NCBI RefSeq assembly: GCF_900105015.1
Contig: NZ_FNLK01000014.1
Location: 30,001 to 62,000 of the forward strand
Source of the DNA: Schaalia meyeri
GTDB lineage: Bacteria; Actinomycetota; Actinomycetes; Actinomycetales; Actinomycetaceae
Direction: 5' to 3'
Length of the DNA stretch: 32,000 nucleotides
Part shown: piece by piece, positions 1,482 through 23,583 of the stretch
Position numbering within the stretch: position 1 is the first letter of the stretch
Layout of the letters: the number at the start of each line of letters is the position of its first letter
Translations under genes and position numbers: made by a program
The notes under the pieces: model-generated
Database searches by the model: none
Told to the model about the DNA's origin: nothing
Seen by the model: the letters and a program-made list of their open reading frames with translations, nothing else

Positions 1482-2365
1482 GCGTTATGGGTAGAATCTC
1501 GCCAAAACGCGCCGCGTTGACGAGGCGGCGACCCCTGCGCACGCGCATCGGTGTCGCAGTCGTGAACATCGTCCTCCTCCTGTGCGCCTTGCTGTGGTTG
1601 CTGCCGGTCTATTGGATGGTGAACTCATCGCTTCAGACGGACCGCAACCTGCTTGCCTCGCCTCCGAAACTGTGGCCCGCGCCGGCCACCTTCGAGCATT
1701 TTCACTCGGTGCTCGTTTCCCCCGTCTTTCACCGGGCTCTCGGCATGTCGCTCCTGACCGCGCTCATCACGGTGCTCGCGACGACGACCCTGTCGCTGCT
1801 CGCCGCGCTGGCCCTGACACGTTTCCAATTTCGAGGAAAACGGAGCTTCATCGTCGCGGTCCTCGTCGTCCAGATGATCCCCGCCGAAGCGCTGTTCATC
1901 TCCCAATACCGAATGCTGGACGCGTGGAGCCTTTTGAACTCGGTGGCGGGCCTGTCGTTGCTGTACGTCGGGGGCGTGCTCCCCTTCGTCACGTGGATGA
2001 TGAGAGGCTACGTGGAGGCGGTGCCCGAGGAACTCGAACAGGCCGCGATGATCGACGGATGCTCGCGGATGGGGGCGTTTATGCGGGTGACGCTGCCGCT
2101 GCTGGCGCCGGGCCTCGTCGCGACCAGCGTGTTTTCCTTCCTCCACTCGTGGAACGAATACACGCTGGCCCTCATCGTGCTGTCGCGCGATAGCGCGGTG
2201 ACTCTCCCGCTGTGGCTCCAATCGTTCCAACAGGGACTGCGCGGAAGCGACTGGGGAGGGGTGATGGCCGCATCCACGATCATCACGATCCCCGTCCTCA
2301 TCCTGTTCATGATCGTGCAGAACCGGATGAGCGCCGGCTTAGTGTCCGGAGCGGTCAAAGGGTAG
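1478..2365 (+). CDS. ABC sugar transporter permease (MalG/UgpE-type)
   Basis: 295-aa ORF with multiple hydrophobic spans. EAA-loop motif EQAAMIDGCSRMGAFMRVTLP. ATGA overlap with the upstream permease. Confidence 0.9.
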   Translation: MSVMGRISPKRAALTRRRPLRTRIGVAVVNIVLLLCALLWLLPVYWMVNSSLQTDRNLLASPPKLWPAPATFEHFHSVLVSPVFHRALGMSLLTALITVLATTTLSLLAALALTRFQFRGKRSFIVAVLVVQMIPAEALFISQYRMLDAWSLLNSVAGLSLLYVGGVLPFVTWMMRGYVEAVPEELEQAAMIDGCSRMGAFMRVTLPLLAPGLVATSVFSFLHSWNEYTLALIVLSRDSAVTLPLWLQSFQQGLRGSDWGGVMAASTIITIPVLILFMIVQNRMSAGLVSGAVKG

Positions 2366-2529
2366 GGACGCGGGGCCGTGAGCGCGAAACACCAGGCGCT
2401 TCGCTGGCTGTCTACCGCGCCACGCTTCGCCCCTCCCGTTTCCCTTCGGCGGTTCCAACCTGCCACCATACTCGGGTGAGTGAGACAAAGAACCCAGCCC
2501 TGGCTTCGTTAGAGCGCGAGGCGGGACCC

Positions 2530-3963
2530 ATGATCCTGCAGGCCTTTGCGTGGGACATGAAGGCGGACGCAAGCCACTGGCGCTACCTCGCGCACCACGC
2601 GCGCGAGATCGCCGATCTGGGCGTCAGCGTCGTCTGGCTGCCGCCCGCCTACAAGGGCAAAATGGGGATCAACGACGTCGGATACGGCGTCTACGACCTG
2701 TACGACCTGGGCGAGTTCGACCAGAAGGGTTCCGTTCCCACGAAGTACGGGACGAAGGACGAATACTTGGCGGCCATCAATGCGCTGCACGAGGAGGGGG
2801 TGGCAGTTGCCGCCGACATCGTCCTCAACCACCGCATGGGTGCCGACGCCTGTGAGACGGTGCTCGCCACGCCAATCGATCCGAACGATCGGCGCAAGGT
2901 CGTGGGGGAACCCGAGACAATCGAGGCGCGTACGCGCTTTACGTTCCCCGGGCGCGCGGGCGCCTACTCGGACTTCACGTGGGACTGGACGTGCTTCCAC
3001 GGGGTCGACTGGGACGTGGCCACGGAGCGCAAGGGCCTGTGGCTCTTCGAAGGAAAACAGTGGAACGATAACGTCGCAGGCGAGCTGGGCAACTACGACT
3101 ACTTGATGGGCTCTGACGTGGACGTTACGGCCCCGGCTGTGAGCGCCGAGCTCGACCGGTGGGGTCGGTGGTATGTGGAGACAACTGGCGTGGACGCGTT
3201 GCGCTTAGACGCCGTGAAACACATCGGCTCCGACTTCTACGCGCGTTGGATCGCCAACCTGCGCGCGGCCACAGGGCGGACGCTGCCCGCCGTCGGTGAG
3301 TATTGGAGCGGGGACGTGAGGGAGCTCGAACGCTATCTTGAGGCCGTGCCCGACATCATGCTCTTCGATGTTCCCCTGCACTTCCGCCTCCACGCCGCCT
3401 CCACCTCGGATGGGAACGCCGACCTGTCGCGCCTGTGGGAGGGGACGCTCACCAGTTCGTACCCGGACCGCTCCGTCACCTTCGTCGAGAACCACGACAC
3501 GCAGCCCGGCCAGTCGCTGGCGTCCACGGTCGCGCCCTGGTTTAAGGCGTCCGCGTACGCGCTGATCCTGCTGGGCGAGGCCGGGGTGCCCTGCGTGTTT
3601 TGGGGCGATCTCTTTGGGACTCCCGAGACCGGCGATCTGACGGCGGTGCCTGAGCTGCCCATCCTCATGTCGATCCGTTCGCGCGCGGCCATCGGCGTCC
3701 AACATGACGCCTTCGACGACCCCGACGTGGTCGGTTTTGCCCGCGAGGGCAAAGCGGACGTGGACGGATCGGGTTGCGCGGTCATCGTTTCCGACCGCTA
3801 CGCCGCCGAAAAGAGACTCTACGTGGGGGAGCGCCACGCGGGTCAGGAGTGGGAGTGCATCATCGGCTCGCACCCGTGCGTGCGCGTCGGCGATGACGGT
3901 ACCCTCACGGGGTTTGTCAAAGACGGTGGGCTGAGCGTCTACGTTCCGTGCGCGGGCGCCTAG
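2530..3963 (+). CDS. Cytoplasmic GH13 alpha-amylase
   Basis: All four GH13 conserved regions are readable: DIVLNHR, GVDALRLDAVKHI, AVGEYW, FVENHD. No signal peptide. ATG 2530 (MILQAFAWD...) has GAGG 8 nt upstream. The 583-aa track ORF start at 2212 would overlap the permease gene. Confidence 0.9.
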   Translation: MILQAFAWDMKADASHWRYLAHHAREIADLGVSVVWLPPAYKGKMGINDVGYGVYDLYDLGEFDQKGSVPTKYGTKDEYLAAINALHEEGVAVAADIVLNHRMGADACETVLATPIDPNDRRKVVGEPETIEARTRFTFPGRAGAYSDFTWDWTCFHGVDWDVATERKGLWLFEGKQWNDNVAGELGNYDYLMGSDVDVTAPAVSAELDRWGRWYVETTGVDALRLDAVKHIGSDFYARWIANLRAATGRTLPAVGEYWSGDVRELERYLEAVPDIMLFDVPLHFRLHAASTSDGNADLSRLWEGTLTSSYPDRSVTFVENHDTQPGQSLASTVAPWFKASAYALILLGEAGVPCVFWGDLFGTPETGDLTAVPELPILMSIRSRAAIGVQHDAFDDPDVVGFAREGKADVDGSGCAVIVSDRYAAEKRLYVGERHAGQEWECIIGSHPCVRVGDDGTLTGFVKDGGLSVYVPCAGA

Positions 3964-3969
3964 GAAACC

Positions 3970-3990
3970 CCGGCCTCGTGCCCAGGCCGG
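3970..3990. terminator. Hairpin between convergent genes (candidate bidirectional terminator)
   Basis: CCGGCCT (3970-3976) pairs with AGGCCGG (3984-3990) around a 7-nt loop. It lies in the 47-bp gap between the amylase stop (3963) and the minus-strand gene stop (4011). Confidence 0.45.
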
Positions 3991-4010
3991 TGCCCCTCCC
4001 GCTCGGCGCG

Positions 4011-4829
4011 TTACTCCTGCGTGCCGCCCAGCGCGGGAATGCGTTCAATCTGCTCCTTGAAGAAGGCCTCGGCCGCAGAAATGAAACGGTCGATGTTCAT
4101 CCCGACCTGCGTGTCAGTGAGGCCGTAGCGCGCGGTCACAAACTGTTCGGCGCACACGCGCTGGGTTCCATCGTCCAGCGCCGCAACGTAGACCTTGGGC
4201 CACCTGGTGGACGCGTTCCAGTCGTTGCACGCCTGGATCAGGCGCGGGCGCAACTCCATCGACACGTCCTCGCGGATCGCGCCCCACATGCTCAGGTCCG
4301 CAGAGTCCTCAACGACAGAGAACATGTAATAGCCCTGGGAGAATCCCGTGCGCAGGCGCTTGTCCTCAACGTCGTACTTGTAATCGTTGCGATCAAAGAA
4401 ATCGGTGATCGCCTTCATGTCGAGGGGACGCACGACCGTGCGTAGTTCGAGGGCGCGCTTGCATTCGGCGATGATCTGCGGAGCGTCCTCGTTGGTCGGA
4501 TCCATAGCGAGGCATTGCTCAAGGTAGGTCAGCGCGTTCTCTTCCTCGTCCTGCCAGTACAGGGCGGTACCGATCCGGTAGTACCACAGCGGGTCGGACA
4601 TGCCTTCCGCCTCAACGCCGCGCAGCAGCTCGACAGCGTGCTTGATGTGCTCCCGGAAGGAATCCATGTAGGGTTGCGCGTAGTTGATGTATGCGCGGGC
4701 CAGCAGGCTGGTGAGCTCGTAGTCCAACACGGACGGGGGCTGGCCTTCAATGAGGGCAATGATCTTTTGATGTTCCTTCTCATCGTGCAGGGTATTGATC
4801 TGCGCGATGAGCGATGAACGCGAATCCAC
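4011..4829 (-). CDS. TPR-like helical-repeat domain fused to a YbjN-family (T3SS-chaperone-like) domain
   Basis: The N-terminal half has a TPR-type consensus (LWYYRIGTALYWQDEEENALTYLEQCLAMDPTNEDA). The C-terminal half has the YbjN-type signature (LIQACNDWNASTRWPKVYVA...DGTQRVCAEQ). The GTG at 4829 is preceded by AAGGAG with a 5-nt spacer. The track ATG at 4856 has no SD and is the alternative start. Confidence 0.75.
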   Translation of the reverse strand: MDSRSSLIAQINTLHDEKEHQKIIALIEGQPPSVLDYELTSLLARAYINYAQPYMDSFREHIKHAVELLRGVEAEGMSDPLWYYRIGTALYWQDEEENALTYLEQCLAMDPTNEDAPQIIAECKRALELRTVVRPLDMKAITDFFDRNDYKYDVEDKRLRTGFSQGYYMFSVVEDSADLSMWGAIREDVSMELRPRLIQACNDWNASTRWPKVYVAALDDGTQRVCAEQFVTARYGLTDTQVGMNIDRFISAAEAFFKEQIERIPALGGTQE

Positions 4830-5085
4830 GGAAGCTCCTTTATAGCAAGGGGACATGCGAGTACCTGGTCACAAGCATATCAGGGGTTGCCAGGAGGCTG
4901 AGCGTTGGGTGGGCGTCTCGCTCACCGTGTCGGGCGGCGAGGTGAGCGACATCGTTGCGAAGACGGCCAAGCACGATTGACGGCCTGCGTGCCGCCGGGT
5001 GGCCGGGGCGCCCGCACAGGCGTCACCGTTGCCGCAAATACCGTCGGTGCTGGGAAGAGCGCCGGGCTGATGCGGATCTCCCGGA

Positions 5086-7854
5086 TCAGCTTCTAGAGTT
5101 CCAGTTCTGCCAGTCGTTCCAGTCATCGTCTTGCGCGTCGATGGCGATGATCGGTACGCGGTCGGACGGCGTCTGTTCGTCGACTTCAGGCGTGGCGGGT
5201 GCGGGTTCTTCCCGCTGCTTCCGGCGCCTGCCCCAGCCCCAGCGCTTGCGGCGCTTCGACTCGCCTTCCTGCTCCTGGCGAGCCTCTTCGTTCCACGAGA
5301 ACTCCGCGTTCCAGTCCTCCTGAACTGACGGTGGCACCGCCGGTGCCTGCGGGGCGGCCGGTGCCTGCGGAGTGGCCATGGGACCAGGCTGTGAGGGAAG
5401 CGGTGGCGCCGAGCTCTGGGGGGCCGGCGTGCTCTCGCGCGCCGGCGGAGGCGCGAGCGGGGGAGTGTCCACGAACGCGTGTTCCCGTCGCGGCGGCTCG
5501 GGGGCGGGCGTAGCCGAGGCCGGCGTCGACCAGTCAAAGGAACTGGTGCTTCGAATCCGAGGCAATCGAGCGGTGGGCAGCTCCGCTTCGTCGTCAACAG
5601 GCATCAACGAGGCCGGGGCGGGCTCGGGTTCGGGCGCAAAGACCGGTTCTGGTTCCGGCGTGGCATCCGGTGTGTACGGGGGTGCGATGGCCGGTTCCGG
5701 TTTGGGCGCGAGCGGCGGCGTGATCGCCGGTTCCGGCTCGGGCGCGACGACCGGCTCCGGCTCGGGCGCGGGCGGTGGCGTGATGGCCGGTTCCGGCTCC
5801 GGCTTGGGTTCGGGCGCAAAGACCGGCTCCGGCTCGGGCGTGGGGTCCGGTGTGTACGGGGGTGCGATGGCCGGTTCCGGTTTGGGCGCGGGCGGTGGCG
5901 TGATGGCCGGTTCCGGCTCCGGCTTGGGTTCGGGCGCAAAGACCGGCTCTGGTTCCGGCGTGGGGTCCGGTGTGTACGGGGGTGCGATGGCCGGTTCCGG
6001 TTCGGGTGCGAAGACTGGCTCCGGGTCCGGCGTGGGCGCGACGGGTGCGGGCGGAGGCGCGAGGATCGGCTCTGGTTCGGGAACCGCGACGGATTCCGCA
6101 GCGGGCATCGGAATGACGGCTCGCTGAATCCTGGGAAGCAGCAGAGTATCGGTCGCCTCGTCGGGGTTTTCGGCCGCCTCGTCGAGGCTGGCGGGAGGAG
6201 GGGGGACGGGCGCTGCAAAATGCGCGGGAGCCTCTTCCGCGCGAGCGGGCGCGTTCGCCTCGGGTTGGGGCACGGCGCGTGCCTGCACCTGTTTGCCCGG
6301 CTGTGCGAACGATGCCGCAGAGGAATCCTCAATGGGCGCTCGTTCGGATGCGACGTGGGTCTCGCGATCCCACACGGAAGCGCTCCGGCGGGAACCTTGG
6401 CTGCCTTCGATCGACGGTGGGGCGGCAGGAATCGGCGCAACCGGGGTGTTCGCACCCCGCTGTGGCGAGGCCGCGTCCGGGACGCTCGGTTCCTGGGTTG
6501 AACCCGCGGAGGAGGGGGGCTGCGGGAACGGCTGCGCGGGACGCTCAGGGAAGACCGCGGGGCGGTGACCGCTGCGTGAATGCCTCCTCTTCGGTGTCAT
6601 CGGCACCCGCGCGGATGCATCAGCACTGGTCTGTGCGGCGTGAGCGGGGCGTGACTTATCCCCCCGGGCGAAACTTGTGTCGCTTGGGGTTGACTGGGGA
6701 GGAGTGGAGGTGCTCGCCTGCGTAGGCTCGGGCGCGGGCACCGACTCGGGCGCAGGTACTCGCTTGGACACAGGCACCCGCTTGGGTTCGGACGCGGGTG
6801 GTGTCGCGGGTGCGGGCATCGGCTTGGGTGCCGGCGCGGGTGCCGGTTTGGGTGCAGGTGCCGGCGCCGGCGGGGGAATGGGCGGGGTAGGACGCCGGGA
6901 GGAATCGGGATCCACCGATTCCCGACGCGCCTGGACCGGCGGGGGAACGGCGGCCGCGGAAGGCCGGGATGGCGGCGCGAAAGCCACGGGCGCCGTGGAA
7001 GCACGAGGCCCCCCGGCCTCGTTGATCCGTGATGCGGAGGGACGCCGGACGTGCGACGGATGCGCGGGGCGCTTCGCTCCCCTCGACGACTCCTCGGATT
7101 TCCTCGCGCGCAACACGTAGAAGATGATGACGGCCACGAGCACCAGGACAATGAGACTAACGATCAAAGCGATAAGCAGGCCGATCGAGGGATCCGAGGA
7201 CGAGGCCGCGGCCGCAGCCTCGGGAGAGGCACCGTTTCCGGGGATGGGAGTGACCCCCCACGGATTCTTCAGGCCGTTCGCGCCGCCCCCCGTCGAGAGG
7301 TTGCCGCCAGCGTTAAGCGAACCGTTGACCGTGATCACCTGGGGAACTGGGGTGGTCCAAGTGGACACGGACAGGGACCTGCCCTCGTAGATTGTCGCAG
7401 AGGTTGATGCCCCGGAAGTTGACGACTTCACTTCTCCTTCGACGCTCAGGAACACCGACGCCAGGGACAGCGACGAACCAAAAATCTTGCGGTACTCGGA
7501 TAACGTCTGATCCGTGCGGGCCGTCAACACAAACTCGCCCGAGTCCTGGACCGCGAACTCAGGATCGTCCTGGAGGCGGCTGTACATGAGCTGCATGTGG
7601 CAAACGGATGCGTCATCGCGCGTCATGAACTCGACGTGGTGGTCCGTGGAATTGCCCACATAGGGGTTGCAGATGGACTCGCTCATCGTGCGCGAGGGAT
7701 CCGTGACAGTCAACGTGTCGACGACCTGACCGTCCTTGGTCACAACGTATGCCTCCGACAGGGTCGGTGCGTTGGCAGCGTGAGTGGCCGACGGTAGCGT
7801 GAGCGCGATGAACAGTGCCCCGAGCGTGGCGCACAGGGCGCGAGAGAGTCGCAT
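5086..7854 (-). CDS. Type-I membrane protein: signal peptide, ~195-aa uncharacterised ectodomain, one TM helix, ~670-aa proline-rich repeat tail
   Basis: 922-aa ORF with AGGAGG (7860-7865) 5 nt upstream of the ATG. Signal peptide MRLSRALCATLGALFIALTLPSATHA. TM at IGLLIALIVSLIVLVLVAVIIFYVL followed by RARK. The remainder is Pro/Ala/Glu-rich with 40-aa tandem repeats. Confidence 0.8.
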   Translation of the reverse strand: MRLSRALCATLGALFIALTLPSATHAANAPTLSEAYVVTKDGQVVDTLTVTDPSRTMSESICNPYVGNSTDHHVEFMTRDDASVCHMQLMYSRLQDDPEFAVQDSGEFVLTARTDQTLSEYRKIFGSSLSLASVFLSVEGEVKSSTSGASTSATIYEGRSLSVSTWTTPVPQVITVNGSLNAGGNLSTGGGANGLKNPWGVTPIPGNGASPEAAAAASSSDPSIGLLIALIVSLIVLVLVAVIIFYVLRARKSEESSRGAKRPAHPSHVRRPSASRINEAGGPRASTAPVAFAPPSRPSAAAVPPPVQARRESVDPDSSRRPTPPIPPPAPAPAPKPAPAPAPKPMPAPATPPASEPKRVPVSKRVPAPESVPAPEPTQASTSTPPQSTPSDTSFARGDKSRPAHAAQTSADASARVPMTPKRRHSRSGHRPAVFPERPAQPFPQPPSSAGSTQEPSVPDAASPQRGANTPVAPIPAAPPSIEGSQGSRRSASVWDRETHVASERAPIEDSSAASFAQPGKQVQARAVPQPEANAPARAEEAPAHFAAPVPPPPASLDEAAENPDEATDTLLLPRIQRAVIPMPAAESVAVPEPEPILAPPPAPVAPTPDPEPVFAPEPEPAIAPPYTPDPTPEPEPVFAPEPKPEPEPAITPPPAPKPEPAIAPPYTPDPTPEPEPVFAPEPKPEPEPAITPPPAPEPEPVVAPEPEPAITPPLAPKPEPAIAPPYTPDATPEPEPVFAPEPEPAPASLMPVDDEAELPTARLPRIRSTSSFDWSTPASATPAPEPPRREHAFVDTPPLAPPPARESTPAPQSSAPPLPSQPGPMATPQAPAAPQAPAVPPSVQEDWNAEFSWNEEARQEQEGESKRRKRWGWGRRRKQREEPAPATPEVDEQTPSDRVPIIAIDAQDDDWNDWQNWNSRS
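5621..6040 (-). repeat. In-frame tandem repeat array, 120-bp unit (40 aa), about 3.5 copies with an internal 60-bp duplication
   Basis: 5761-5820 versus 5881-5940 differ only in the first 3 nt. 5821-5880 versus 5941-6000 differ at about 4 positions. 5641-5700 is a further copy. 5701-5760 is an extra half-unit, and there are degenerate ends at 5621-5640 and 6001-6040. Confidence 0.9.
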
Positions 7855-7880
7855 GCAGTCCTCCTGATATGAGTCACTCG

Positions 7881-7909
7881 ATTATCGTCCGTTCGTGGAT
7901 ACAAAGCAA
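7881..7909 (-). promoter_or_regulatory. Candidate sigma-70-type promoter of the 922-aa gene
   Basis: On the minus strand: TTGCTT (7909-7904), a 17-nt spacer, then GATAAT (7886-7881), about 27 nt upstream of the ATG. It lies in a ~50% GC intergenic region. Confidence 0.3.
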
Positions 7910-8096
7910 CGAGGGGACCTCAATGCGAGATTAACTGACCGGCTGTAAAGGGAAAGGGGGGCGACTGTCAAAAAGAAACGCACCCTCTTGGTAAGGTCAG
8001 ATGGTATTGTGTCGCGTACTATGACAGGAGTCTACCTGCAGTCAGGATTTCAATGAAGAAGGACGTTGTTGCCAGCTGTCACGAAGGAAGTGTCCC

Positions 8097-8723
8097 ATGA
8101 AGTGCCGACACGCCACGCGCGAAGACATCCCCGCGATCACACGAATTGTCACCGAGGGATTTCTGGACTACCCGCTGCACATCATGCTGAAGCCGTACCT
8201 CTACCAGCCGGAGCATTACCCGCAGTGCCTGACCGCGATGAATCGCATGCTCGCCCGAGCCTATCAGCGGTCACGGAAAGCCCTCGTCGTCGAGCAAGAC
8301 GGGCGTGTTATCGCAACGGCCCTCATGCACGACCGCAAGGTGGGCCTGATGCGCAATGTCACGAGCGGGGGGTATGACCTCTTTCGATATGCCTCCCCCC
8401 GACTCATCGCCGACTTTGCTGACGTCACCGACCGTGCCGACCAGATTGCCATCGACAACGGGCATTTTGACTGGTACCTCGAGATCCTCTCGGTGGACAA
8501 AAGCATGCGCGGCCACGGAGTCGGTCGTTGGCTCGTCTCCAAGGTGCTGCCCGACTTCGTGGCGAAGCGAGGCGGGTATGGGTACGGATTTGTGACGTCA
8601 ACGGAATCGAATGCTCGTTTCTACATCAACGGCGGCTGCGAGCTCGTTGGACGCGTGGATGTGTCGATGAGGGAACAGACGTGCCCGATTTGGGCCTTTC
8701 AGAGGCGGGCGGAGAGGCTGTGA
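8097..8723 (+). CDS. GNAT-family N-acetyltransferase
   Basis: 208-aa ORF with GAAGGAAG upstream of the ATG. Acetyl-CoA pocket motif MRGHGVGRWLV (R/Q-x-x-G-x-G/A) within LEILSVDKSMRGHGVGRWLVSKVL. Confidence 0.85.
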   Translation: MKCRHATREDIPAITRIVTEGFLDYPLHIMLKPYLYQPEHYPQCLTAMNRMLARAYQRSRKALVVEQDGRVIATALMHDRKVGLMRNVTSGGYDLFRYASPRLIADFADVTDRADQIAIDNGHFDWYLEILSVDKSMRGHGVGRWLVSKVLPDFVAKRGGYGYGFVTSTESNARFYINGGCELVGRVDVSMREQTCPIWAFQRRAERL

Positions 8724-8835
8724 CGGGAAGGGGAATCCGGCAGGCTGCGAGGTGGCGTACCGAGCATCCTGAGGGGGCCGCGTTGTGCGCGGTTTGCGCA
8801 GGTCGCAGGGCGTGATACACGTCCCGCAGTTCCGC

Positions 8836-8866
8836 TTGACTTCAAGGGCTTGAGGTCTTTTAGGGT
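8836..8866 (+). promoter_or_regulatory. MerR-type promoter: -35 TTGACT, 19-bp spacer containing a dyad operator, -10 TAGGGT
   Basis: TTGACT (8836-8841), a 19-nt spacer (8842-8860), then TAGGGT (8861-8866). The dyad GACTTCAAG-GG-CTTGAGGTC (8838-8857) has 9-bp arms with one mismatch. The ATG lies 6 nt after the -10, which suggests a leaderless transcript. Confidence 0.6.
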
Positions 8867-8872
8867 GAAGCC

Positions 8873-9334
8873 ATGGCAGGAACAGGCTCCGGGCGCACGT
8901 ACTCCATCAAGGAGGTGTCGGCGCTCGTCGGCTTGCCCGCATCCACGTTGCGTTACTACGAGGACGTGAGTGTCATTCCTGCCATCGCGCGCGACCCCTC
9001 CAGCGGTCACCGCATCTACATGGAAGAAGACCTCGAACTGCTGACGTGGGTCGCCTGCCTGTCCGCCTCGGGCATGTCCATCGCCGACATGCGCGAATAC
9101 GTGCGGTCGGGATTGGGCGGAGAACGCGACATTTCCGAGTTCGTCGCCCTGCTGGAGCATCAGGATGAGCGATTGCGGGAAGAAGCGCAGATCATCGAGC
9201 TGCGCCGCGAGTTTTTGCGCACGAAGGTCGCCTACTGGCGCGCGGTCAAGCGTGAGGACACGCCGGAAGCCGCGCGTTTGGACGCCGCTGCACGCGCGCT
9301 TGCGGAGCGGTTGAAGGCGTGGTCGTTGCGCTAG
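8873..9334 (+). CDS. MerR-family transcriptional regulator (short, NmlR/AdhR-like, no ligand domain)
   Basis: N-terminal HTH YSIKEVSALVGLPASTLRYYEDVSVIP...GHRIY, followed only by a coiled-coil dimerisation helix. A single Cys sits in WVACLSASGMSIADMREY, at the position of the conserved Cys of NmlR/AdhR-type regulators. Confidence 0.88.
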   Translation: MAGTGSGRTYSIKEVSALVGLPASTLRYYEDVSVIPAIARDPSSGHRIYMEEDLELLTWVACLSASGMSIADMREYVRSGLGGERDISEFVALLEHQDERLREEAQIIELRREFLRTKVAYWRAVKREDTPEAARLDAAARALAERLKAWSLR

Positions 9335-9340
9335 TTAAAG

Positions 9341-9387
9341 CCTAGTGGGGCGGGTTTCAAGCCTGCTCCGAACCTCGCCCCGCTAGG
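9341..9387. terminator. Long imperfect GC-rich stem-loop downstream of merR
   Basis: CCTAGTGGGGCG (9341-9352) pairs with CGCCCCGCTAGG (9376-9387), with one G-U pair. The stem can extend via GGTT/AACC inside the loop. Confidence 0.4.
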
Positions 9388-9394
9388 GGGCACG

Positions 9395-9425
9395 GGGCCG
9401 CGCACCTGGCTCGGGTGCGCGGCCC
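9395..9425. terminator. Perfect 12-bp GC-rich hairpin (candidate bidirectional terminator)
   Basis: GGGCCGCGCACC (9395-9406) pairs with GGTGCGCGGCCC (9414-9425) around a 7-nt loop, followed by TCATTT. It lies between convergent reading frames ending at 9334 (+) and 9430 (-). Confidence 0.6.
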
Positions 9426-9429
9426 TCAT

Positions 9430-9792
9430 TTACGCGCGCTGGGGGAAGGAGGGAAACACGCGCCCCAGGTAAGCCGTGTCGCGTTCGATGAGGGCGGACA
9501 GATGTTCCCAGGCAAGCCCCTCATCCTCGTGCCAGGAGATTTCTGCGACAACGAGGAGGCGGGGAAACAGGTCGCACGCACGGTGCAAGGCCGCTTCAAC
9601 GAAGTTCAGAGAGGAGGCGAGCGGCCAGAGGGGCGTGTTAGCGGCACAAACGTCGCCGTGGGTGACCAGGCGTGGGTTTCCCATGTGCGGGTACGAACGG
9701 ATGGATGCGCCGGCGTGGGAGGGGACGGAGATCTCCGGGACGATGGCGAAAAACGTTGCGCTGGCGCGTGATGCGAGAGCTTTTGTTCGGTG
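9430..9792 (-). pseudogene. C-terminal relic of an APH/choline-kinase-fold phosphotransferase
   Basis: The frame is open only from 9792 (stop at 9793-9795). It contains the catalytic-loop pattern LVTHGDVCAAN (HGDxxxxN). The following metal-binding segment reads NFVEAA where D-W/F-E is expected. There is no room for an N-lobe, because the next gene starts at 9846. The only ATG gives 84 aa. Confidence 0.35.
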
Positions 9793-9817
9793 TCAAAGTG
9801 TGTCACAATCGTGTGAA
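9791..9817 (+). promoter_or_regulatory. Three phased direct repeats TGTCAA / TGTCAC / TGTGAA upstream of the GS-family gene (candidate response-regulator box)
   Basis: The repeats start at 9791, 9801 and 9812, a spacing of 10 and 11 bp. GTCAC-n6-GTGAA loosely resembles the actinobacterial GlnR a-site/b-site layout (gTnAc-n6-GaAAc). They lie 29-55 nt upstream of ATG 9846. Confidence 0.25.
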
Positions 9818-9845
9818 CCTAATCATGCTCAATGAGGAGTGATCT

Positions 9846-11339
9846 ATGCTGTCGACCGACACTATTTCCCTCAGTCCCAACCCCCTCGTCCAGGCGCTCG
9901 GAAAGCCTGCGAAGGAGTTTACGAAGTCCGACATCATCGGCTATATCGAGGACAACAACATCCCGATGCTGAACCTGCGCTACGTCGGAGGCGACGGGCG
10001 TCTCAAGACACTTAACTTTGCGGTCCAATCCAAGGCGCACTTGGACCGCGTCCTCACGCTCGGCGAGCGCGTCGACGGGTCTTCGCTCTTTACTTTTGTC
10101 GATGCGACCTCCTCGGACCTGTACGTCGTGCCGCGCTTGTCGACGGCCTTTCTGAACCCATTCACGCCGATCAAGGCGCTCGATATCCTGTGCGGTTTCT
10201 ATGACGTGGACGGAGTACCCTTGGCCTCGGCGCCCCAGGAGATCTTGCGCAAGGCACAAAACGCCCTGAGGCAGGAAACCGGCTGCGAGCTTCAGGCGCT
10301 GGGAGAATTGGAATACTACCTGTTCTCCGACCGGGAGGAGCTCTTCCCCGTCGAACCCCAGCGGGGCTACCACGAGTCCGGCCCCTTCTCGAAGTGGGAG
10401 AACGTGCGCACGCAGACCCTGCTTCACCTGGTCACAATGGGATGTGCGGTGAAGTACGCGCATTCGGAGGTGGGCAACTTCGTGGCGGACGGGCGCCAAA
10501 TGATCCAGCAGGAAATCGAGTTCCTCCCCGTCGATGTGGTTGATGCTGCCGACCAGATGGTGCTGGCCAAGTGGGTGCTGCGCGAGGTTGCGCACGCCCA
10601 TGGCATTGAGGTGTCATTCGCGCCGAAGATCGCGGTCGGGCAAGCCGGATCCGGCATGCACTTCCACACCCGTCTGGTGAAGGACGGCGTTAACCGGTTC
10701 TCGACAGGATCGGGCCTGACCAAGGACGCGCTCAAGGTCATCGGCGGGTATCTTTCGCATGCCGCGTCGCTCACCGCTTTCGGCAATACCGCGCCCACAT
10801 CCTTCCTGCGCCTGGTTCCCCACCAGGAGGCGCCAACAGCGATCTGTTGGGGCGATCGCAACCGTTCCGTTCTGGTGCGCGTTCCGCTGGGATGGCAAAA
10901 CATCGATGATTCGATGTTCCGCGACGCAAACCCCGCCGAAACGCAGCTGATCGACCTGCCCAACGATTCCCAGACGATCGAGCTGCGCAGCCCCGACGGA
11001 TCCGCGGACATCCACCTGCTGCTGGCGGGCATCACGGTCGCCGCGCGCCTTGGGCTGACGGAGCCGGGCATGGCTAAATACGCGCGCCAGCGCAAAGTCG
11101 ATGGCGATGCCTCGCAGACGCCCGGCCTCGAGCAGCTGCCCGCCTCGTGCTTCGAGGCCGCCGGTCGACTCCTTGCTCAGCGAAAGGACTACGAGGCGCG
11201 CGGCGTATTCCCCTGCGGCCTCATAGATTCGTGGGTGTCGCACCTGGTCGACCTGGGCGACGAGCACCTACGGGACGACCTGGCAGAATCCAGGGTCTCA
11301 GTCGAGGAACTCGTCACACGCTACTTTCATGTCGGCTGA
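9846..11339 (+). CDS. Glutamine synthetase family protein (GSI-like catalytic motifs, atypical subtype)
   Basis: GAGGAG lies 6 nt upstream of the ATG. GS motifs present: ELEYYLF, HSEVG...QQEIEF, GSGMHFH, TSFLRLVPHQEAP, RNRSVLVRVP, IELRSPD. Confidence 0.88.
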   Translation: MLSTDTISLSPNPLVQALGKPAKEFTKSDIIGYIEDNNIPMLNLRYVGGDGRLKTLNFAVQSKAHLDRVLTLGERVDGSSLFTFVDATSSDLYVVPRLSTAFLNPFTPIKALDILCGFYDVDGVPLASAPQEILRKAQNALRQETGCELQALGELEYYLFSDREELFPVEPQRGYHESGPFSKWENVRTQTLLHLVTMGCAVKYAHSEVGNFVADGRQMIQQEIEFLPVDVVDAADQMVLAKWVLREVAHAHGIEVSFAPKIAVGQAGSGMHFHTRLVKDGVNRFSTGSGLTKDALKVIGGYLSHAASLTAFGNTAPTSFLRLVPHQEAPTAICWGDRNRSVLVRVPLGWQNIDDSMFRDANPAETQLIDLPNDSQTIELRSPDGSADIHLLLAGITVAARLGLTEPGMAKYARQRKVDGDASQTPGLEQLPASCFEAAGRLLAQRKDYEARGVFPCGLIDSWVSHLVDLGDEHLRDDLAESRVSVEELVTRYFHVG

Positions 11340-11397
11340 CGAAAAAGCGGTCCCAACCGGCGTGAATGGGCAGCGGTGCGGTTTTCCGCGCGGCGGG

Positions 11398-12309
11398 CTA
11401 CGGACGCCCCGGAGGGGAGAATCGATCGGAATCCTGGACGTCCGCTCCGCCTTGGTCAGGCGCTGGCGTCTCGGGGGTACGTGCGGAGCGGCTGAGTCCC
11501 CGAGGCGTCGCAGCGTCGCCCGCGAAGGCGCGCCGCTGCGCGGCGCGCTCCGACGCGTCGCGGTCGAATCGCGCGTCGGCGGCCCTGCGGCGCGCCCCCG
11601 TCACGAAGCGTACGGCCGCGCCGGCGATGGCGAGCCCGAGCACGGCGGCAGTGAGGCCGATGATCGGGGCCAGCAGGCGCCACGAGGATTCGTGTTCTCC
11701 TCTGTTAGTAGTCGCGGACGCGGCCAAGGAGGGCGAAGGCGTCGCGGATGGAGTGCTGGTGCCGGTTGCATCAACCGTGCCCGCCGCGCTCACATCCTCG
11801 GTGACGTTCTCCCACGTGACGGTGCTGGCGTCCGTCTTCGTGGACCCCGCGTGCGAGGACACGGACCCGCCGGCGGAGGCCTCCTCAACTTGGGAAGCGT
11901 GAGCGACCAGGGTGACGCGCGCGATCGTGGCTGTTGCCTCGGGTGAGGAGTAGCCCTCGAGAAGCCTCGCGGACACCGAGTGGAAGCGGAAGATCCCACC
12001 GTCTTCGATCGAAACGACCTCGGCACCGGCGTCCTCGAGCACCCACGTGAAGCGGCAGCCCGCGACCCCGTCGACATCCACCAGCACCGACGACGTCGCC
12101 TTGGCTGCGGTCCCCATCGACTGGCACTGCTCGCCAATCAACGGGTGGTCCGTGGACAGGGTCACCTCGTGGGTCGCGTTCACCCCCGGCGTGATCTCAT
12201 AGACCTCAATGAGACGGATCGGGGTTGGCTCATCCGCCAACGCAACCCCACCGAACGCCGTCAGAGCCAGAGTGGCTGCGGCGCTGCACAATACCCGCGC
12301 GAGCCTCAT
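11398..12309 (-). CDS. Type-I membrane protein, short paralogue of the 922-aa protein (signal peptide, ectodomain, Ser/Thr linker, TM, 70-aa tail)
   Basis: 303-aa ORF. Signal peptide MRLARVLCSAAATLALTAFGGVALA. TM at LLAPIIGLTAAVLGLAIAGAAV followed by RFVTGARRR. The ATG overlaps the stop of the upstream acyltransferase gene (ATGA). It is collinear with the 5086-7854 product (Cys62, Cys85 and Trp166 at identical residue numbers). Confidence 0.78.
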   Translation of the reverse strand: MRLARVLCSAAATLALTAFGGVALADEPTPIRLIEVYEITPGVNATHEVTLSTDHPLIGEQCQSMGTAAKATSSVLVDVDGVAGCRFTWVLEDAGAEVVSIEDGGIFRFHSVSARLLEGYSSPEATATIARVTLVAHASQVEEASAGGSVSSHAGSTKTDASTVTWENVTEDVSAAGTVDATGTSTPSATPSPSLAASATTNRGEHESSWRLLAPIIGLTAAVLGLAIAGAAVRFVTGARRRAADARFDRDASERAAQRRAFAGDAATPRGLSRSARTPETPAPDQGGADVQDSDRFSPPGRP

Positions 12310-12884
12310 GCGTCCTCATCCTCGGTGCGCAGGCGAGGAACCGACGTGTATTCCGGGCGCGCGCCGACCTTATCCGCGTAAAACGCGCGGATCACGTCCA
12401 TGTCGGCCCGCACGTCGCCCGTCAGACGGTAAGACGGCCCCCACCCGAAGGTGTGAGTGGCGCTGTCCACGAACCCCAGCTGAATCGGCACATCCGCCTG
12501 CATCGCGATGCGGTAGAAACCGGACTTCCAAAAGTCGCGCGGTGACCGAGTGCCCTTCGGGGTGAGGCACAGCGTGAAACTCTGTGACTCCCTGATCCGG
12601 GTGGCCACCTGCTCCACGAGCCCGTGCGCGGCGCCGCGCTTCACCGGGATCCCGCCAATCTTTTTGACGAACCACCCCAGGAGCGGGGCCTTCACCACGG
12701 AGTCCTTGACCAGGAAGGAGAAGCTACGGCCCTGCTTCCACATGGCGACCGTCATGAACACTCCGTCCCAATTCGACGTGTGCGGGGCGCCGATCACGAT
12801 GACCTTGTCCGGCAGGGGCTGCGTCGACAACTTCCAGCGGGAGACGCCAAGGTAGGCGGACGCGAGTGCGCGAGTGAGAGCCAT
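12306..12884 (-). CDS. PlsC-type lysophospholipid/glycerolipid acyltransferase
   Basis: H(X)4D catalytic motif HTSNWD and the second block LTPKGTRS. ATG 12884 is preceded by GAAAGG with a 5-nt spacer. The track start at 12914 is a TTG 10 codons upstream. Confidence 0.85.
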   Translation of the reverse strand: MALTRALASAYLGVSRWKLSTQPLPDKVIVIGAPHTSNWDGVFMTVAMWKQGRSFSFLVKDSVVKAPLLGWFVKKIGGIPVKRGAAHGLVEQVATRIRESQSFTLCLTPKGTRSPRDFWKSGFYRIAMQADVPIQLGFVDSATHTFGWGPSYRLTGDVRADMDVIRAFYADKVGARPEYTSVPRLRTEDEDA

Positions 12885-13342
12885 GGTGGCCTTTCTGTTC
12901 GTAGCTGGAGCCAATCCTACTCGGGTCTCGCTCGCTCAAGCGTTTCCGTCGCTGGGGTCTGTGTCATGCGCGTGCGCGCTATCCGAGATGGTGCGGGAGG
13001 AGAGCCTATGAACCTTGGAAGGCTTCGCCCGGCGGGGGCGGCAGGGATGCGCGCCGAGAGGGGGCGTGACTCGACCCTCGGGGATGTCGGCGCCGAGCGC
13101 GGCGATGTTTGTCATAGTCCTCAGTTAACGGCATGTGAGGTTGTCCGGCAAATAGACCGGTTGGTTTGATCCATTGTTGTCGTGACGTGGTGGAAGTCGC
13201 AGGGTGGGGTCCGCATCGGCCATCCGTAAGCCGATATTCTTGGGAAGCGTGTGTCTGGAATCGGTCAGGTGGCCGAACAACATCGGGCCGTTTGTGCCCC
13301 ATCACACGCGGTAACAGGTATCCATATTCGAGGAGTCCACAT

Positions 13343-15262
<1,920 letters not shown>

Positions 15263-15280
15263 CGGTCTGGTCGTTCCCCG

Positions 15281-15607
15281 CTACAGCGTCGGCGGGGGAG
15301 GGACGCGCTTGCCCGTCACCATCGTTCGCGCGTCGACACGGACCACGCCGCGCCTGGTCGCAACGCTCACGTGGGTGGGGGCAACCTCAACGGCCTCACC
15401 CAGTGCGTCGTGCAGACCGTCGGCCAGGCGATAGCGGATCACGATCCGCTCACCAACCTCGAACTGCATCCACGGCAACACGGGAATTGCGCCAGGGGTA
15501 CGTGCAGAAATTTCCTCACGCGCCCCCAATGGCTTCTTCGCGTGATTTGGCGGAATAGTGCCGCTGGGAACGTCGTCGTGGATGCCGGGTGACTCGGGAC
15601 TGCTCAT
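15281..15607 (-). CDS. Hypothetical small protein (possible SH3-like beta-barrel; function unknown)
   Basis: 108-aa ORF divergent from fdxA, with a beta-rich core EVGERIVIRYRLADGLHDALGEAVEV...RRGVVRVDARTMVTGKRV. No SD. TATTAT lies 6 nt upstream of the ATG. Confidence 0.65.
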   Translation of the reverse strand: MSSPESPGIHDDVPSGTIPPNHAKKPLGAREEISARTPGAIPVLPWMQFEVGERIVIRYRLADGLHDALGEAVEVAPTHVSVATRRGVVRVDARTMVTGKRVPPPPTL

Positions 15608-15613
15608 ACGTGA

Positions 15614-15619
15614 ATAATA
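15614..15619 (-). promoter_or_regulatory. -10 hexamer TATTAT, 6 nt upstream of ATG 15607 (leaderless-type promoter)
   Basis: The minus strand reads TATTAT-tcacgt-ATG. There is no Shine-Dalgarno sequence. Confidence 0.35.
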
Positions 15620-15623
15620 GAAT
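15618..15623 (+). promoter_or_regulatory. Candidate -10 TAGAAT for fdxA
   Basis: TAGAAT lies 37 nt upstream of ATG 15660, which itself has AGGAGG. It overlaps the divergent -10 on the other strand. Confidence 0.3.
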
Positions 15624-15659
15624 CAACGAGCCTATGGAACTGACTAGGAGGAACGTCTC

Positions 15660-16001
15660 ATGACCTACGTCATCGCGCAGCCGTGCGTGGACGTTAAGGA
15701 TCGCGCGTGCGTGGACGAGTGCCCCGTCGATTGCATCTACGAGGGCGAGCGCACGCTCTACATCCACCCGGAGGAGTGCGTCGACTGCGGGGCGTGCGAA
15801 CCCGTCTGCCCCACCGAGGCCATCTTCTACGAGGACGACCTGCCCGATGAATGGTCCGACTACCTGCGCGCGAACGCCGACTTCTTCAACCAGCTGGGCA
15901 GCCCGGGCGGCGCCCAGAAGACCGGCGCCCAGGATTATGACGATCCGATGATTACCGCGCTGCCGCCCCAGAATGAGGACTGGAAAGCCGAGAACATGTA
16001 A
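15660..16001 (+). CDS. fdxA: 7Fe ferredoxin ([3Fe-4S][4Fe-4S])
   Basis: Cys pattern [17 protein letters not shown] followed by [18 protein letters not shown] upstream of the ATG. Confidence 0.95.
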
Positions 16002-16021
16002 AGGTCAGATAGGGTGGGGGG

Positions 16022-17161
16022 ATGACGTTTCCCCTTCCCCGCGCCCTCGACCTGCCCGAGTTCCCCTGGGATCAGCTGGCCCCCGCCAAAACGCGGGCAG
16101 CCGACTACCCCGGGGGGCTCTGTGATTTAAGCGTCGGAACGCCCGTTGACGACACCCCGGCGTTCATCCGCGCCGCCCTCGCCGACGCCGCGAACGCGCA
16201 CGGCTATCCCACGGTCGCGGGGACCCGGGAGGTGCGCGATGCGATCCTGGCGTGGGGCGCTCGCCGAGGCATGGTCGACGTGGGCCGCTCCGGCGTGACT
16301 CCCACGATCGGATCCAAGGAAGCCGTCGCCTGGATCCCCGCGCTGCTCGGTGTGCGGGCGGGGGACGCCGTTTTGGTTCCCGAGGTCGCTTACCCCACCT
16401 ACGACGTGGGAGCCCGACTGGCGGGCGCCACCCCCATCCCCGTTGACCCGACTCGCCCCGGCTCCTGGCCCGACGCGCCCCTGGTTTACCTGAATTCGCC
16501 CGGAAACCCCGACGGTCACGTGATGAACAAGGAACAGCTGCGCGGTGCCGTCGCCTGGGCACGCGCTCGCGGGGCTGTGATCGTCTCGGACGAATGCTAC
16601 GCGGCCCTGCCGTGGTCCGAGCCGTACGTGAGCGAGGGGGTTCCGTCGCTGCTCGACGCGCACGTCTGTGGTGGGGATCCTTCCGGCCTGCTAGTCCTGT
16701 ATTCGCTGTCCAAGCAGTCGAATCTCGCCGGCTACCGCGCGGCCCTCATGTACGGCGATCCCGCGCTGGTTCAGGCAATCGTGACGGTGCGCAGGCACTC
16801 CGGCCTGATGGTTCCTTCCCCCGTGCAGCACGCCATGGCCCTGACCCTGGCCGACACGGAGCACGTCGCTGCCCAGAGGAGCGTGTACGAGGCTCGGCGT
16901 GCCCTGCTGCTGCACGCCCTCGCCTGTGCCGGACTCGAGGTTGACCCGGCCAGCGCGGCGGGCCTGTACCTGTGGGTCGCAGACCCGACGGCAGGGGCAG
17001 ATTCGTGGGCGCTCGTCAACCGCTTTGCGGAGCTGGGCATTCTCGTCGCTCCCGGCGACTTCTACGGCACCGCCGCCCGCGGCCGTGTTCGCGTGGCGCT
17101 CACGGCCACGGACGAGCGCATGAAGGCCGCTGCAAGCCGCATCGCTTCGCGGTGGCGATAG
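16022..17161 (+). CDS. dapC: Succinyldiaminopimelate aminotransferase (actinobacterial DapC type), class I PLP aminotransferase
   Basis: PLP-lysine block YSLSKQSNLAGYR. It sits immediately after fdxA, the conserved actinobacterial arrangement. Confidence 0.8.
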   Translation: MTFPLPRALDLPEFPWDQLAPAKTRAADYPGGLCDLSVGTPVDDTPAFIRAALADAANAHGYPTVAGTREVRDAILAWGARRGMVDVGRSGVTPTIGSKEAVAWIPALLGVRAGDAVLVPEVAYPTYDVGARLAGATPIPVDPTRPGSWPDAPLVYLNSPGNPDGHVMNKEQLRGAVAWARARGAVIVSDECYAALPWSEPYVSEGVPSLLDAHVCGGDPSGLLVLYSLSKQSNLAGYRAALMYGDPALVQAIVTVRRHSGLMVPSPVQHAMALTLADTEHVAAQRSVYEARRALLLHALACAGLEVDPASAAGLYLWVADPTAGADSWALVNRFAELGILVAPGDFYGTAARGRVRVALTATDERMKAAASRIASRWR

Positions 17162-19165: not shown

Positions 19166-20200
19166 ATGGATGAGCCCATGGCGTCGTCCCAGGCGGCTCC
19201 TGACGACCTGACCGCAACAAGCTATGTTCCTCAGCTGCTCGGCGGTCACCTGACATATTCCGCCCGGGACATTTCTCAGGCCACGAATACGCCGATCGAG
19301 CGCGTCTTCCAGTTCTGGATCGCCCTGGGTTTCCAGGCTCCCGGCGCCGACGATCCTGTCTTTTCTCAGCGTGACCTTGACGTGTTCAATCGGTGGCACG
19401 ACCTCGTTGAGTCCGGCGATATTGACACCGCGACGTCCCGTTCGCTCCTGCGCGCGAGCTCCCACCTGGCCGACAGGCTGGCCCTGTGGCAGTACGAGGC
19501 CCTGGTCGAGGATTCGATGCGCCGATTGATGCTGGACGACACGACCGCCCGCATGTACGTGCTGGACCACATGCGCGAGTACGTCGACGTCTTCCAAGAG
19601 ATGTTCACCTATTCGTGGCGACGCCAGCTTGAGGCAACCCTGTCACGCTTCGATCGAGAGGTCTCTCAGCGAGGCCACGAGGAGCGGCATGACCGCTTCC
19701 CGCTGAATCGATGCCTCGGCTTTGTCGACATGGTTTCCTACACGTCCTCATCGACGATCCTCGGCGACGCGCTGGTCGGGCTTATCGGGCGCTTCGAAGA
19801 GGAGAGCCGAACCGCCGTGATCGAGGAGGGCGGGCGCGTCGTAAAGATGATCGGGGACGCCGTGCTGTACATCGCGGATGACCTGTCGACCGGGCTGCGC
19901 GTCGTCACCGCACTCATCGAACGCCTGAATGCCGACGACGAGATGCTGCCCGTGCGCGCTTCCTTCGTGCGCGGGGACGTTTTTTCACGCTCGGGCGACG
20001 TGTTCGGGCCGACCGTCAACCTCGCGTCTCGCCTCGTGGACATCGCGCCGGTCGGGAAAATCCTCACCGATCCGGCGACCGCCGCCGCTATCGCCGCAGG
20101 CAAGGGGGGAGACGGCTACGAACTCGAGGAATTCCCCACCGCGGACTTGCGCGGTTTTGGTCCGGTTTCCCCCTACCTGCTGTCTAGCGTCGTGGACTAG
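19166..20200 (+). CDS. Class III adenylate/guanylate cyclase with ~170-aa N-terminal helical (HTH-like) domain
   Basis: Cyclase blocks GFVDMVSYTS, VKMIGDAVLY and GDVFGPTVNLASRL in the C-terminal half. GAGGAG lies 9 nt upstream of the ATG. Confidence 0.85.
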   Translation: MDEPMASSQAAPDDLTATSYVPQLLGGHLTYSARDISQATNTPIERVFQFWIALGFQAPGADDPVFSQRDLDVFNRWHDLVESGDIDTATSRSLLRASSHLADRLALWQYEALVEDSMRRLMLDDTTARMYVLDHMREYVDVFQEMFTYSWRRQLEATLSRFDREVSQRGHEERHDRFPLNRCLGFVDMVSYTSSSTILGDALVGLIGRFEEESRTAVIEEGGRVVKMIGDAVLYIADDLSTGLRVVTALIERLNADDEMLPVRASFVRGDVFSRSGDVFGPTVNLASRLVDIAPVGKILTDPATAAAIAAGKGGDGYELEEFPTADLRGFGPVSPYLLSSVVD

Positions 20201-22529: not shown

Positions 22530-22550
22530 CAGCCGGTAGCGTGCGCGGCG

Positions 22551-22556: not shown

Positions 22557-22562
22557 GAAGGC

Positions 22563-23558: not shown

Positions 23559-23583
23559 GGGCCATCTTCGCATCTCAAGACGT

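Follow-up and report, generated by a model that had tools for sequence, protein, structure and literature searches.

The locus raises the question of whether two membrane proteins of very different length, encoded on the same strand of a Schaalia meyeri contig, belong to one family, and what the extracellular domain that they appear to have in common might be. The DNA analysed here (hereafter the window) is a 32,000-nucleotide stretch of contig NZ_FNLK01000014.1 (positions 30,001 to 62,000 of the forward strand), and the two genes, referred to as A and B, encode proteins of 303 and 922 residues. An earlier note, made from the sequence alone, had described them as a two-member family that shares an unnamed ectodomain. 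Our analysis indicates that A and B are very likely ancient and very distant paralogues, i.e. members of a homologous family with this architecture; the family is unnamed in databases and is not limited to these two proteins. The features of the two genes are the following.

11398..12309, minus strand: gene A, from the open reading frame (ORF) list, a 303-residue type I single-pass membrane protein, the short paralogue
12235..12309, minus strand: signal peptide of A, residues 1-25, MRLARVLCSAAATLALTAFGGVALA, cleaved before DE; type I (AxA) with no lipobox, from sequence and hydropathy
11770..12234, minus strand: ectodomain of A, residues 26-180, with family-invariant C62, C85, W166 and G177
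11677..11769, minus strand: stalk of A, residues 181-211, rich in Ser/Thr/Pro/Ala, as read from the sequence
11611..11676, minus strand: transmembrane helix of A, residues 212-233, followed by R234 and RRR240-242; Kyte-Doolittle windows >1.6
11401..11610, minus strand: cytoplasmic tail of A, residues 234-303 (70 residues)
11410..11424, minus strand: C-terminal motif of A, (E/D)RF(A/S)PP, R296-P300
5086..7854, minus strand: gene B, from the ORF list, a 922-residue type I single-pass membrane protein, the long-tailed paralogue
7777..7854, minus strand: signal peptide of B, residues 1-26, MRLSRALCATLGALFIALTLPSATHA, cleaved before AN, from sequence and hydropathy
7315..7776, minus strand: ectodomain of B, residues 27-180, with invariant C62, C85, W166 and G178
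7186..7314, minus strand: stalk of B, residues 181-223, rich in Gly/Ser/Ala/Pro; low model confidence over residues 208-223
7111..7185, minus strand: transmembrane helix of B, residues 224-248, followed by R249-A-R-K; Kyte-Doolittle peak 3.6
5089..7110, minus strand: cytoplasmic tail of B, residues 249-922 (674 residues; 26% Pro, 16% Ala, 9% Glu)
5089..5319, minus strand: C-terminal module of B, residues 846-922, with W-x-x-x-F-S-W-N-E-E, a basic RWGWGRRRK patch and then VPIIAIDAQDDDWNDWQNWNSRS

Both ORFs exist with the N-termini that the earlier note had quoted, and each protein contains exactly three cysteines, at residues 8, 62 and 85, together with a Thr-Trp pair at residues 165-166, so that the Cys and Trp positions noticed by eye are correct, as are the linker, the single transmembrane helix, the basic stop-transfer sequence and the great disparity in tail length. 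The GC content at third codon positions is at the level of real genes in both A (0.81) and B (0.76), as compared to 0.66-0.68 in the overlapping alternative frames. The exact sequences of both proteins are present in NCBI, that of B without a name, and A shares 98% identity with 'hypothetical protein ADJ76_01250 [Schaalia meyeri]'. Neither protein has a lipobox, as signal peptide cleavage is of the AxA type (ALA/D and THA/A, at residues 25/26). Cys8 is located N-terminal to the hydrophobic core of the signal peptide, in the context RVLC or RALC, and it is absent from most orthologues of A; the mature A and B domains contain exactly two cysteines, both of which are invariant.

Pairwise methods did not reveal the relationship between A and B. 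BLASTP aligned only residues 1-40, which are mostly signal peptide (E=0.007), and left the ectodomains unaligned; Smith-Waterman comparison of the mature ectodomains gave no signal (z=0.3 against 2000 shuffles); and hhalign returned P=0.23 for profiles that contained close Schaalia orthologues only (effective sequence number, Neff, 1.3-1.7). The pairwise alignment by which the earlier note had proposed to judge the family formally fell short of significance by BLASTP and Smith-Waterman, but profile methods give a significant result, and because pairwise methods lack power at this divergence their failure was not counted as evidence against homology. An exhaustive hidden Markov model (HMM) search with the A family against 1.84 billion representatives retrieved no more than 29 proteins at E<=0.001; two of these, P0160 and P0178, are divergent relatives of full length, and P0178 is encoded on a metagenomic contig with 55% GC within a run of same-strand genes of like architecture. 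After these two sequences were added, hhalign matched A to B with P=2.4e-5 and 75% probability over 145 collinear columns that span the whole ectodomain, and with P=1.5e-5 once the divergent B orthologue of S. georgiae was included. The real score of 36.5 is ~9 standard deviations above the scores of 400 column or block shuffles (12.5-13.5 +/- 2.5, maximum 23), and reversed profiles scored 13-15. Reciprocal HMM searches with A and B yielded E=4.8e-5 and 1.9e-6. An HMM constructed solely from nine tandem paralogues of the array type described below, with no Schaalia sequence in it, recognized the ectodomains of both B (50.0 bits, E=1e-17) and A (36.1 bits, E=2e-13), as compared to a maximum of 7.9 bits over 946 shuffles, and single array members match the A-only profile as well as the B-only profile. 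With the joint HMM, A and B scored E=8e-45 and E=4e-52, respectively, and no further ORF in the window was matched.

The predicted structures of the two ectodomains agree in register. In independent AlphaFold2 (AF2) models, 72% of residues have the same secondary structure in A and B, a value that drops to ~40% when the sequences are shifted by six or more residues. The strands common to both are located at ~44-53, 71-79, 82-92, 105-113, 127-138, 139-145, 148-156, 159-169 and 173-180, and a helix that begins at residue 114 is also present in both models. Across 17 diverse members (A, B and array proteins) the only invariant columns are C62, C85, W166 and G178 in B numbering (C36, C59, W140 and G152 in mature numbering), while E8 is at least 90% conserved; the two cysteines are separated by 22-23 residues within an ectodomain of ~155 residues. 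As the Cys and Trp residues picked out in the earlier note coincide with these invariant columns, its signature corresponds to the conserved core of the family, and the segment pairs that it had matched (EVYEIT/EAYVVT, EDGGIFRF/QDSGEFVL, LEGY/LSEY and the segments beginning ARVTLVAH and ASVFLSVE) occupy columns aligned by both MAFFT and hhalign. Its statement that the two proteins differ only in tail length has to be given up, since their ectodomains are 15-18% identical and their tails differ in composition and in terminal motif, with A ending in (E/D)RF(A/S)PP and B in DDDWNDWQNWNSRS, and their partner genes differ too. It has to be asked whether A and B could lack common ancestry altogether and merely combine generic signal peptides, linkers and transmembrane helices with coincidental Cys and Trp positions. 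The failure of BLASTP beyond the signal peptide, the Smith-Waterman result and the shallow-profile comparison are what such a reading would predict, but it conflicts with the deeper profiles, with the array-only HMM and the dual matches of array members, and with secondary structures that coincide in register around residues that turn out to be invariant. Profile scores far above those of shuffled sequences led us to reject chance resemblance, and separate origins are extremely improbable.

The family extends well beyond the two members first described, as tandem arrays of at least nine paralogues are present in another Actinomycetales lineage. In these searches, family matches were found only in Actinomycetales, i.e. 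in Schaalia/Pauljensenia and in an organism with a GC content of ~55%. A metagenome scan, for which a 3-sequence alignment served as the query, yielded 74 array-type loci, and where contigs are long (up to 1.47 Mb) each array contains at least nine family genes, each encoding a signal peptide, a two-Cys ectodomain, a Ser-rich stalk, a transmembrane helix and a Pro/Gln-rich tail. The last family gene in all arrays examined encodes a long-tailed member (785-820 residues), which is B-like by profile (20.1 bits vs B, 0.2 bits vs A), and the ectodomains of the paralogues have diverged to 15-20% identity (17 members). A, B and the array members have one architecture, from the type I signal peptide to a tail with a conserved terminal motif. 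The window and its Schaalia/Pauljensenia relatives carry exactly two family copies per locus, a count that refers to the loci and not to whole genomes. The protein cluster of the array type contains 691 members; the only taxon label in it is Trueperella pyogenes, a single label that we treat with caution. Array loci include L054, L055, L063, L085, L049, L044 and L083 (~1-11500 in each) as well as L030 (1-11131). The array of L030 has one member divided into an ORF for a 237-residue ectodomain (2924-3637) and an ORF for a 164-residue transmembrane segment and tail (3659-4153); as the same gene is an intact 409-residue ORF elsewhere (L055:3311-4540), the split is a frameshift or a sequencing error.

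The shared ectodomain is without a database name, as the earlier note had supposed. A Pfam scan of 23 members (A, B, 14 ectodomains and nine further relatives) gave no match above noise, and an NCBIfam scan of A and B returned nothing relevant. Matches to Big_4, Filament_head and CD1107-like models were discarded, being below the cut-off and in low-complexity or transmembrane regions, and a third homologue search, using the joint profile, retrieved close Schaalia sequences only and no informative Pfam annotation.

Within Schaalia and its relatives both genes are well conserved. Orthologues of A were found in 25 Schaalia/Pauljensenia genomes by a species-level genome scan, database matches comprise 353 A-type and 31 B-type proteins, and syntenic orthologues of B are 413-995 residues long. 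Orthologous ectodomains are 66-80% identical. Among close relatives the ratio of nonsynonymous to synonymous substitution (dN/dS) of the ectodomain amounts to 0.13 in A and 0.11 in B, as compared to 0.04-0.07 for neighbouring enzymes; selection on the ectodomains is purifying, and diversifying selection was rejected on these values. The stalk of A, for which the predicted local distance difference test (pLDDT) of the model is <50, is weakly kept among orthologues (24-52% identity). In the tail of A, conservation is seen in a juxtamembrane helix, AADA(R/Q)FDRDA, and at the C-terminus, where 13 diverse orthologues all have F297, P299 and P300. The last 77 residues of B are 64-77% identical between orthologues vs ~40% in mid-tail; every full-length orthologue ends in RWGWG(K/R)RRK followed by DAQDDDWNDWQNWNSRS, and the C-terminal module hardly differs among 13 full-length orthologues and the ectodomain-less variant described below. 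Tandem repeats in the tail of B encode PEPEP-type units (nt 5680-6010, periods of 36, 60 and 120 nt by Tandem Repeats Finder), an observation that also covers window positions 6809-6871. Several B orthologues from metagenome-assembled genomes (MAGs) shift within the PEPEP repeats into an alternative frame (SPNPN...), some of the short orthologues being frameshifted in this way, and these observations on repeats, length and frame extend to the B orthologues of loci L001, L006, L008, L010 and L019; the frame shifts could be assembly errors or real length or phase variation.

The termini of array members resemble those of A and B. They read RNRFAPPEE, GWHNPFEPP, PRNPYGPP, EWRNPSA and DWRNSL, from which two recurrent motif types can be extracted, [RN]-[PR]-[FY]-x-P-P and [DEG]-W-[RHQ]-N. 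In the array member with GWHNPFEPP the two types are fused, and the B-type protein of S. georgiae contains DPDRFAPE within its tail. The positions concerned are 11410-11424 (A) and 5089-5160 (B) of the window and the array members of L055. These sequences suggest that the A-type and B-type termini may be halves of one ancestral cytoplasmic linear motif. A natural variant retains the terminus in the absence of the ectodomain: the B orthologue of Actinomyces sp. ICM47 (L005:15058-17196) has the signal peptide, transmembrane helix, tail and C-terminal module, and has lost the ectodomain. This allele has only ~50 extracellular residues, which lack the Cys pair and are not recognized by the family HMM, together with a ~600-residue tail and a DDDWQNWNSRN terminus, and it was seen in the genome of an isolate, in a MAG and in a metagenome protein of the Joint Genome Institute (also L022:14394-14813 and P0151).

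To what fold the ectodomain belongs was approached through the AF2 model of B, which has 12 strands and one main helix with pLDDT >90 over residues 31-200, and which was computed from a 10-sequence alignment with the mean pLDDT of the five models ranging from 80 down to 36. The model of A has an all-beta core with two helices at pLDDT ~80, and the transmembrane regions are contained in helices that span residues 214-264 in A and 224-258 in B. When the B model was searched against the PDB with Foldseek, the top match was 2nc8, the nuclear magnetic resonance structure of LppM from Mycobacterium tuberculosis (E=6.5e-5, probability 1.00), with a template-modelling score of 0.53 normalised to LppM over 178 columns and 9% identity; other matches had target-normalised scores of at most 0.27. 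The domain of LppM (residues 26-185) is described as a pseudo-barrel of 11 strands with a helix closing it, which compares with the 12 strands and main helix modelled in B. LppM (Rv2171) also resembles A and B in having a signal peptide, a beta-rich domain of ~160 residues and a C-terminal transmembrane segment. However, LppM is a lipoprotein with a lipobox (22-ATGC-25), whereas A and B have type I signal peptides, and unlike LppM they contain an invariant Cys pair, a low-complexity stalk and tails of 70-674 residues with conserved ends; the tandem arrays are a further difference. Through its homology with B and the 72% agreement in secondary structure, A would inherit the LppM-like fold.

The earlier note had remarked that the architecture recalls the LppM/DUF3153 layout, which it described as an actinobacterial exported domain with a C-terminal anchor, homology not being verifiable by eye. 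The likeness holds for the fold of B, and there is no sequence link and no lipobox. DUF3153 (PF11353) matched none of 23 family members at E<=10 (for A and B the threshold was mostly E<=1), 2nc8 was absent from the hmmsearch results of profiles A2, A3 and A6 against all PDB sequences (E<=10), and no mention of DUF3153 or PF11353 was found in the literature searched. Profile matches to APP and the major histocompatibility complex, which are look-alikes with a single transmembrane segment, and to RACK1 (E=0.54) were treated as chance, as was a weak, non-significant match of the joint profile (97-151) to the BON region of Rv0899 (ArfA/OmpATb) with E=0.16, in which a 'TW' context is shared. Membership of A and B in LppM/DUF3153 is not demonstrable and their likeness to LppM is one of fold only, although we consider it fairly probable that this LppM-like fold reflects common descent.

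The genes that accompany A and B differ, and two of them may be relevant to function.

12306..12914, minus strand: PlsC-type acyltransferase, 202 residues, HX4D motif HTSNWD; PF01553, E=5.5e-17
8097..8723, plus strand: GNAT acetyltransferase, 208 residues, head-to-head with B; PF00583/PF13508

The conserved gene order of the region is BipA, the acyltransferase directly upstream of A, GlnA, (GH20), MerR, the GNAT gene divergent from B, (EcsC) and YbjN. The acyltransferase, which matches TIGR00530 below the cut-off of that model (E=1.8e-11), is located upstream of A in 25/25 loci, an order that S. meyeri shares with P. hongkongensis and S. georgiae. Its stop codon overlaps the start of A by 4 nt (ATGA, window 12306-12309), and the same overlap is present in contigs of the S. 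odontolytica type (L001:10001-10004) and in P. hongkongensis (L027:9821-9824); this conserved overlap points to translational coupling of A to the acyltransferase. The GNAT gene adjoins B in those Schaalia loci long enough to show it, and in all arrays examined the terminal long-tailed member faces, tail-to-tail, a GNAT that is homologous to the one in the window (27% identity over residues 5-206, E ~1e-28). By the H37Rv numbering, Rv2170 and Rv2171 (lppM) are consecutive genes, a possible parallel to the adjacency of B and its GNAT. Rv2170 is a GNAT of 206 residues, the C-terminal half of which contains the GNAT domain; comparison of the window GNAT with the PDB gave distant GNATs only, and no Rv2170 structure was matched. 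A consensus scan for promoters and terminators over 4800-13400 produced counts at or below shuffle expectation.

Taken together, these data describe A and B as N-out/C-in type I proteins that comprise a cleavable Sec signal peptide, a beta-rich ectodomain of ~155 residues, a low-complexity stalk, a transmembrane helix and a disordered tail, and a mechanism can be proposed for them. The two invariant cysteines would form a disulfide via the actinobacterial MdbA pathway, in keeping with the observation that exported actinobacterial proteins typically carry even numbers of cysteines oxidised by MdbA. The ectodomain would bind an envelope lipid or glycolipid at the outer face of the membrane, such as phosphatidylinositol (PI) or a PI mannoside (PIM), as LppM does; the reported ligands of LppM are PI, PIM2Ac2 and PIM6Ac2, and PI and PIM are polar lipids of relatives of the Actinomycetaceae. 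A may work with its coupled acyltransferase in the acylation or handling of envelope lipids, and the tails, chiefly their conserved C-terminal motifs, may dock cytoplasmic partners, with the 674-residue Pro-rich tail of B acting as a long flexible tether. A functional analogy can be drawn to LprG and LppX, envelope proteins compared in the LppM paper and proposed to bind, present or transfer PIM, lipomannan and lipoarabinomannan; they are likened to A and B by description only, being lipoproteins of another fold and family that have neither a transmembrane helix nor a cytoplasmic tail. We assign this explanation as a whole a probability of roughly 0.6. Its lipid-handling component, which is argued from analogy to LppM, is doubtful at present and is offered tentatively. 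It is less likely still that the family constitutes a transmembrane lipid-status relay, in which a disulfide-locked LppM-like ectodomain would sample PI/PIM of the outer leaflet, the tail motif would recruit or regulate cytoplasmic enzymes (the acyltransferase for A, possibly the GNAT for B) and the arrays would be a panel of ligand specificities.

Several results weigh against the explanation that we prefer. The fold match depends on one AF2 model from the small alignment, and the low-confidence model of A had no PDB match at E<=0.001 in Foldseek. The fold match could be an analogy, given that all sequence methods failed to link the family with LppM or PF11353. The coupling to an acyltransferase applies to A only, and none is visible in the arrays examined. 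The common origin of the terminal motifs was recognized by eye, with no statistics, and the loss of the ectodomain in ICM47 implies that at least part of the role of B is independent of that domain.

Other explanations account for parts of these data. A and B could be true, highly diverged members of LppM/DUF3153, with B the positional orthologue of LppM and endowed with a glycolipid-presenting role. The top PDB fold match of B, the common layout, the near-equal lengths of Rv2170 and the window GNAT, the consecutive numbering of Rv2170 and Rv2171 and the retention of the B-GNAT adjacency across two lineages are all consistent with this idea. Yet 23 members and three profiles gave no Pfam, NCBIfam or PDB-sequence match, the lipobox is missing, LppM has no long cytoplasmic tail, and the GNAT gene is head-to-head in the window and tail-to-tail in the arrays, which makes true membership unlikely in our estimate. 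A similarly low likelihood attaches to an explanation centred on the tails, according to which the proteins are membrane-tethered disordered scaffolds whose C-terminal motifs recruit partners and whose ectodomain is accessory or regulatory. It has in its favour the ICM47 allele, which preserves everything but the ectodomain, C-terminal modules that are as conserved as the ectodomains, and the basic, Trp-rich RWGWGRRRK patch, which could bind a membrane or a partner. However, purifying selection acts on the ectodomain in every other lineage and the Cys/Trp core of this domain does not vary within the family, and such a role for the tails would complement our preferred explanation more than exclude it.

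The members could instead be variable surface proteins (adhesins, antigens or phage-receptor decoys) that are displayed on a glycosylated stalk and diversified by tandem duplication. Arrays of at least nine divergent paralogues with ectodomains at 15-20% identity, human-associated hosts and Ser/Thr-rich stalks would fit, and LppM itself is reported to influence the interaction with macrophages. Against this stand the ectodomain dN/dS of 0.11-0.13, stalks of only ~30-45 residues, which are short for crossing an actinobacterial wall, and the absence of LPXTG or any other wall-anchoring signal, while the conserved cytoplasmic motifs and the coupling of A to the acyltransferase point to envelope housekeeping; we regard display at the surface as quite unlikely, and less probable than either of the two preceding ideas.

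Further observations concern the surroundings of A and B. Two of the 25 loci, L004 and L016, are titled Xylanimonas, and their BipA proteins are 94-96% identical to those of Schaalia loci in full synteny; these assemblies are probably mislabelled or contaminated. In P. hongkongensis (L027) a masked run of N occupies 15100-16500, downstream of GlnA, where the B-type gene is expected. Just downstream of B, the window encodes a YbjN-domain protein with a tetratricopeptide repeat (4011-4856, minus strand); relatives contain two or three tandem YbjN-like paralogues (L005:18412-19245; L027:16816-19352), and two EcsC genes that lie between B and YbjN in relatives are absent from the window. The longest ORF for an alpha-amylase (2212-3963, plus strand, 583 residues, GTG start) runs across a tRNA-Ala encoded on the other strand (2512-2604, minus strand), and because its NCBIfam match starts near residue 100-107, translation probably begins downstream of that tRNA gene. 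Two conserved ORFs with no Pfam match, 19166-20200 (plus strand, 344 residues) and 22509-23573 (minus strand, 354 residues), flank a two-component system, and near them are two LCP-family genes (23655-26320) and a GT2 glycosyltransferase (26780-27823), i.e. an envelope-biogenesis neighbourhood.

The immediate value of these findings is better annotation and a testable hypothesis; they establish no new mechanism, and function is inferred. The family definition would cover several hundred proteins now called 'hypothetical' (the 353 A-type and 31 B-type proteins and the 691-member cluster). LppM is tied to phagosome arrest by M. tuberculosis and to PIM binding, and to our knowledge its fold is represented by one solved structure only. 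If the assignment is correct, A and B would belong to a sister family of LppM that is invisible to sequence methods and occurs in oral and commensal Actinomycetales, where its members are non-lipidated and have conserved cytoplasmic motifs. They may thereby provide tractable, non-pathogenic contexts and natural variants, such as the ectodomain-less allele, in which to ask what role LppM-like domains have in actinobacterial envelopes.

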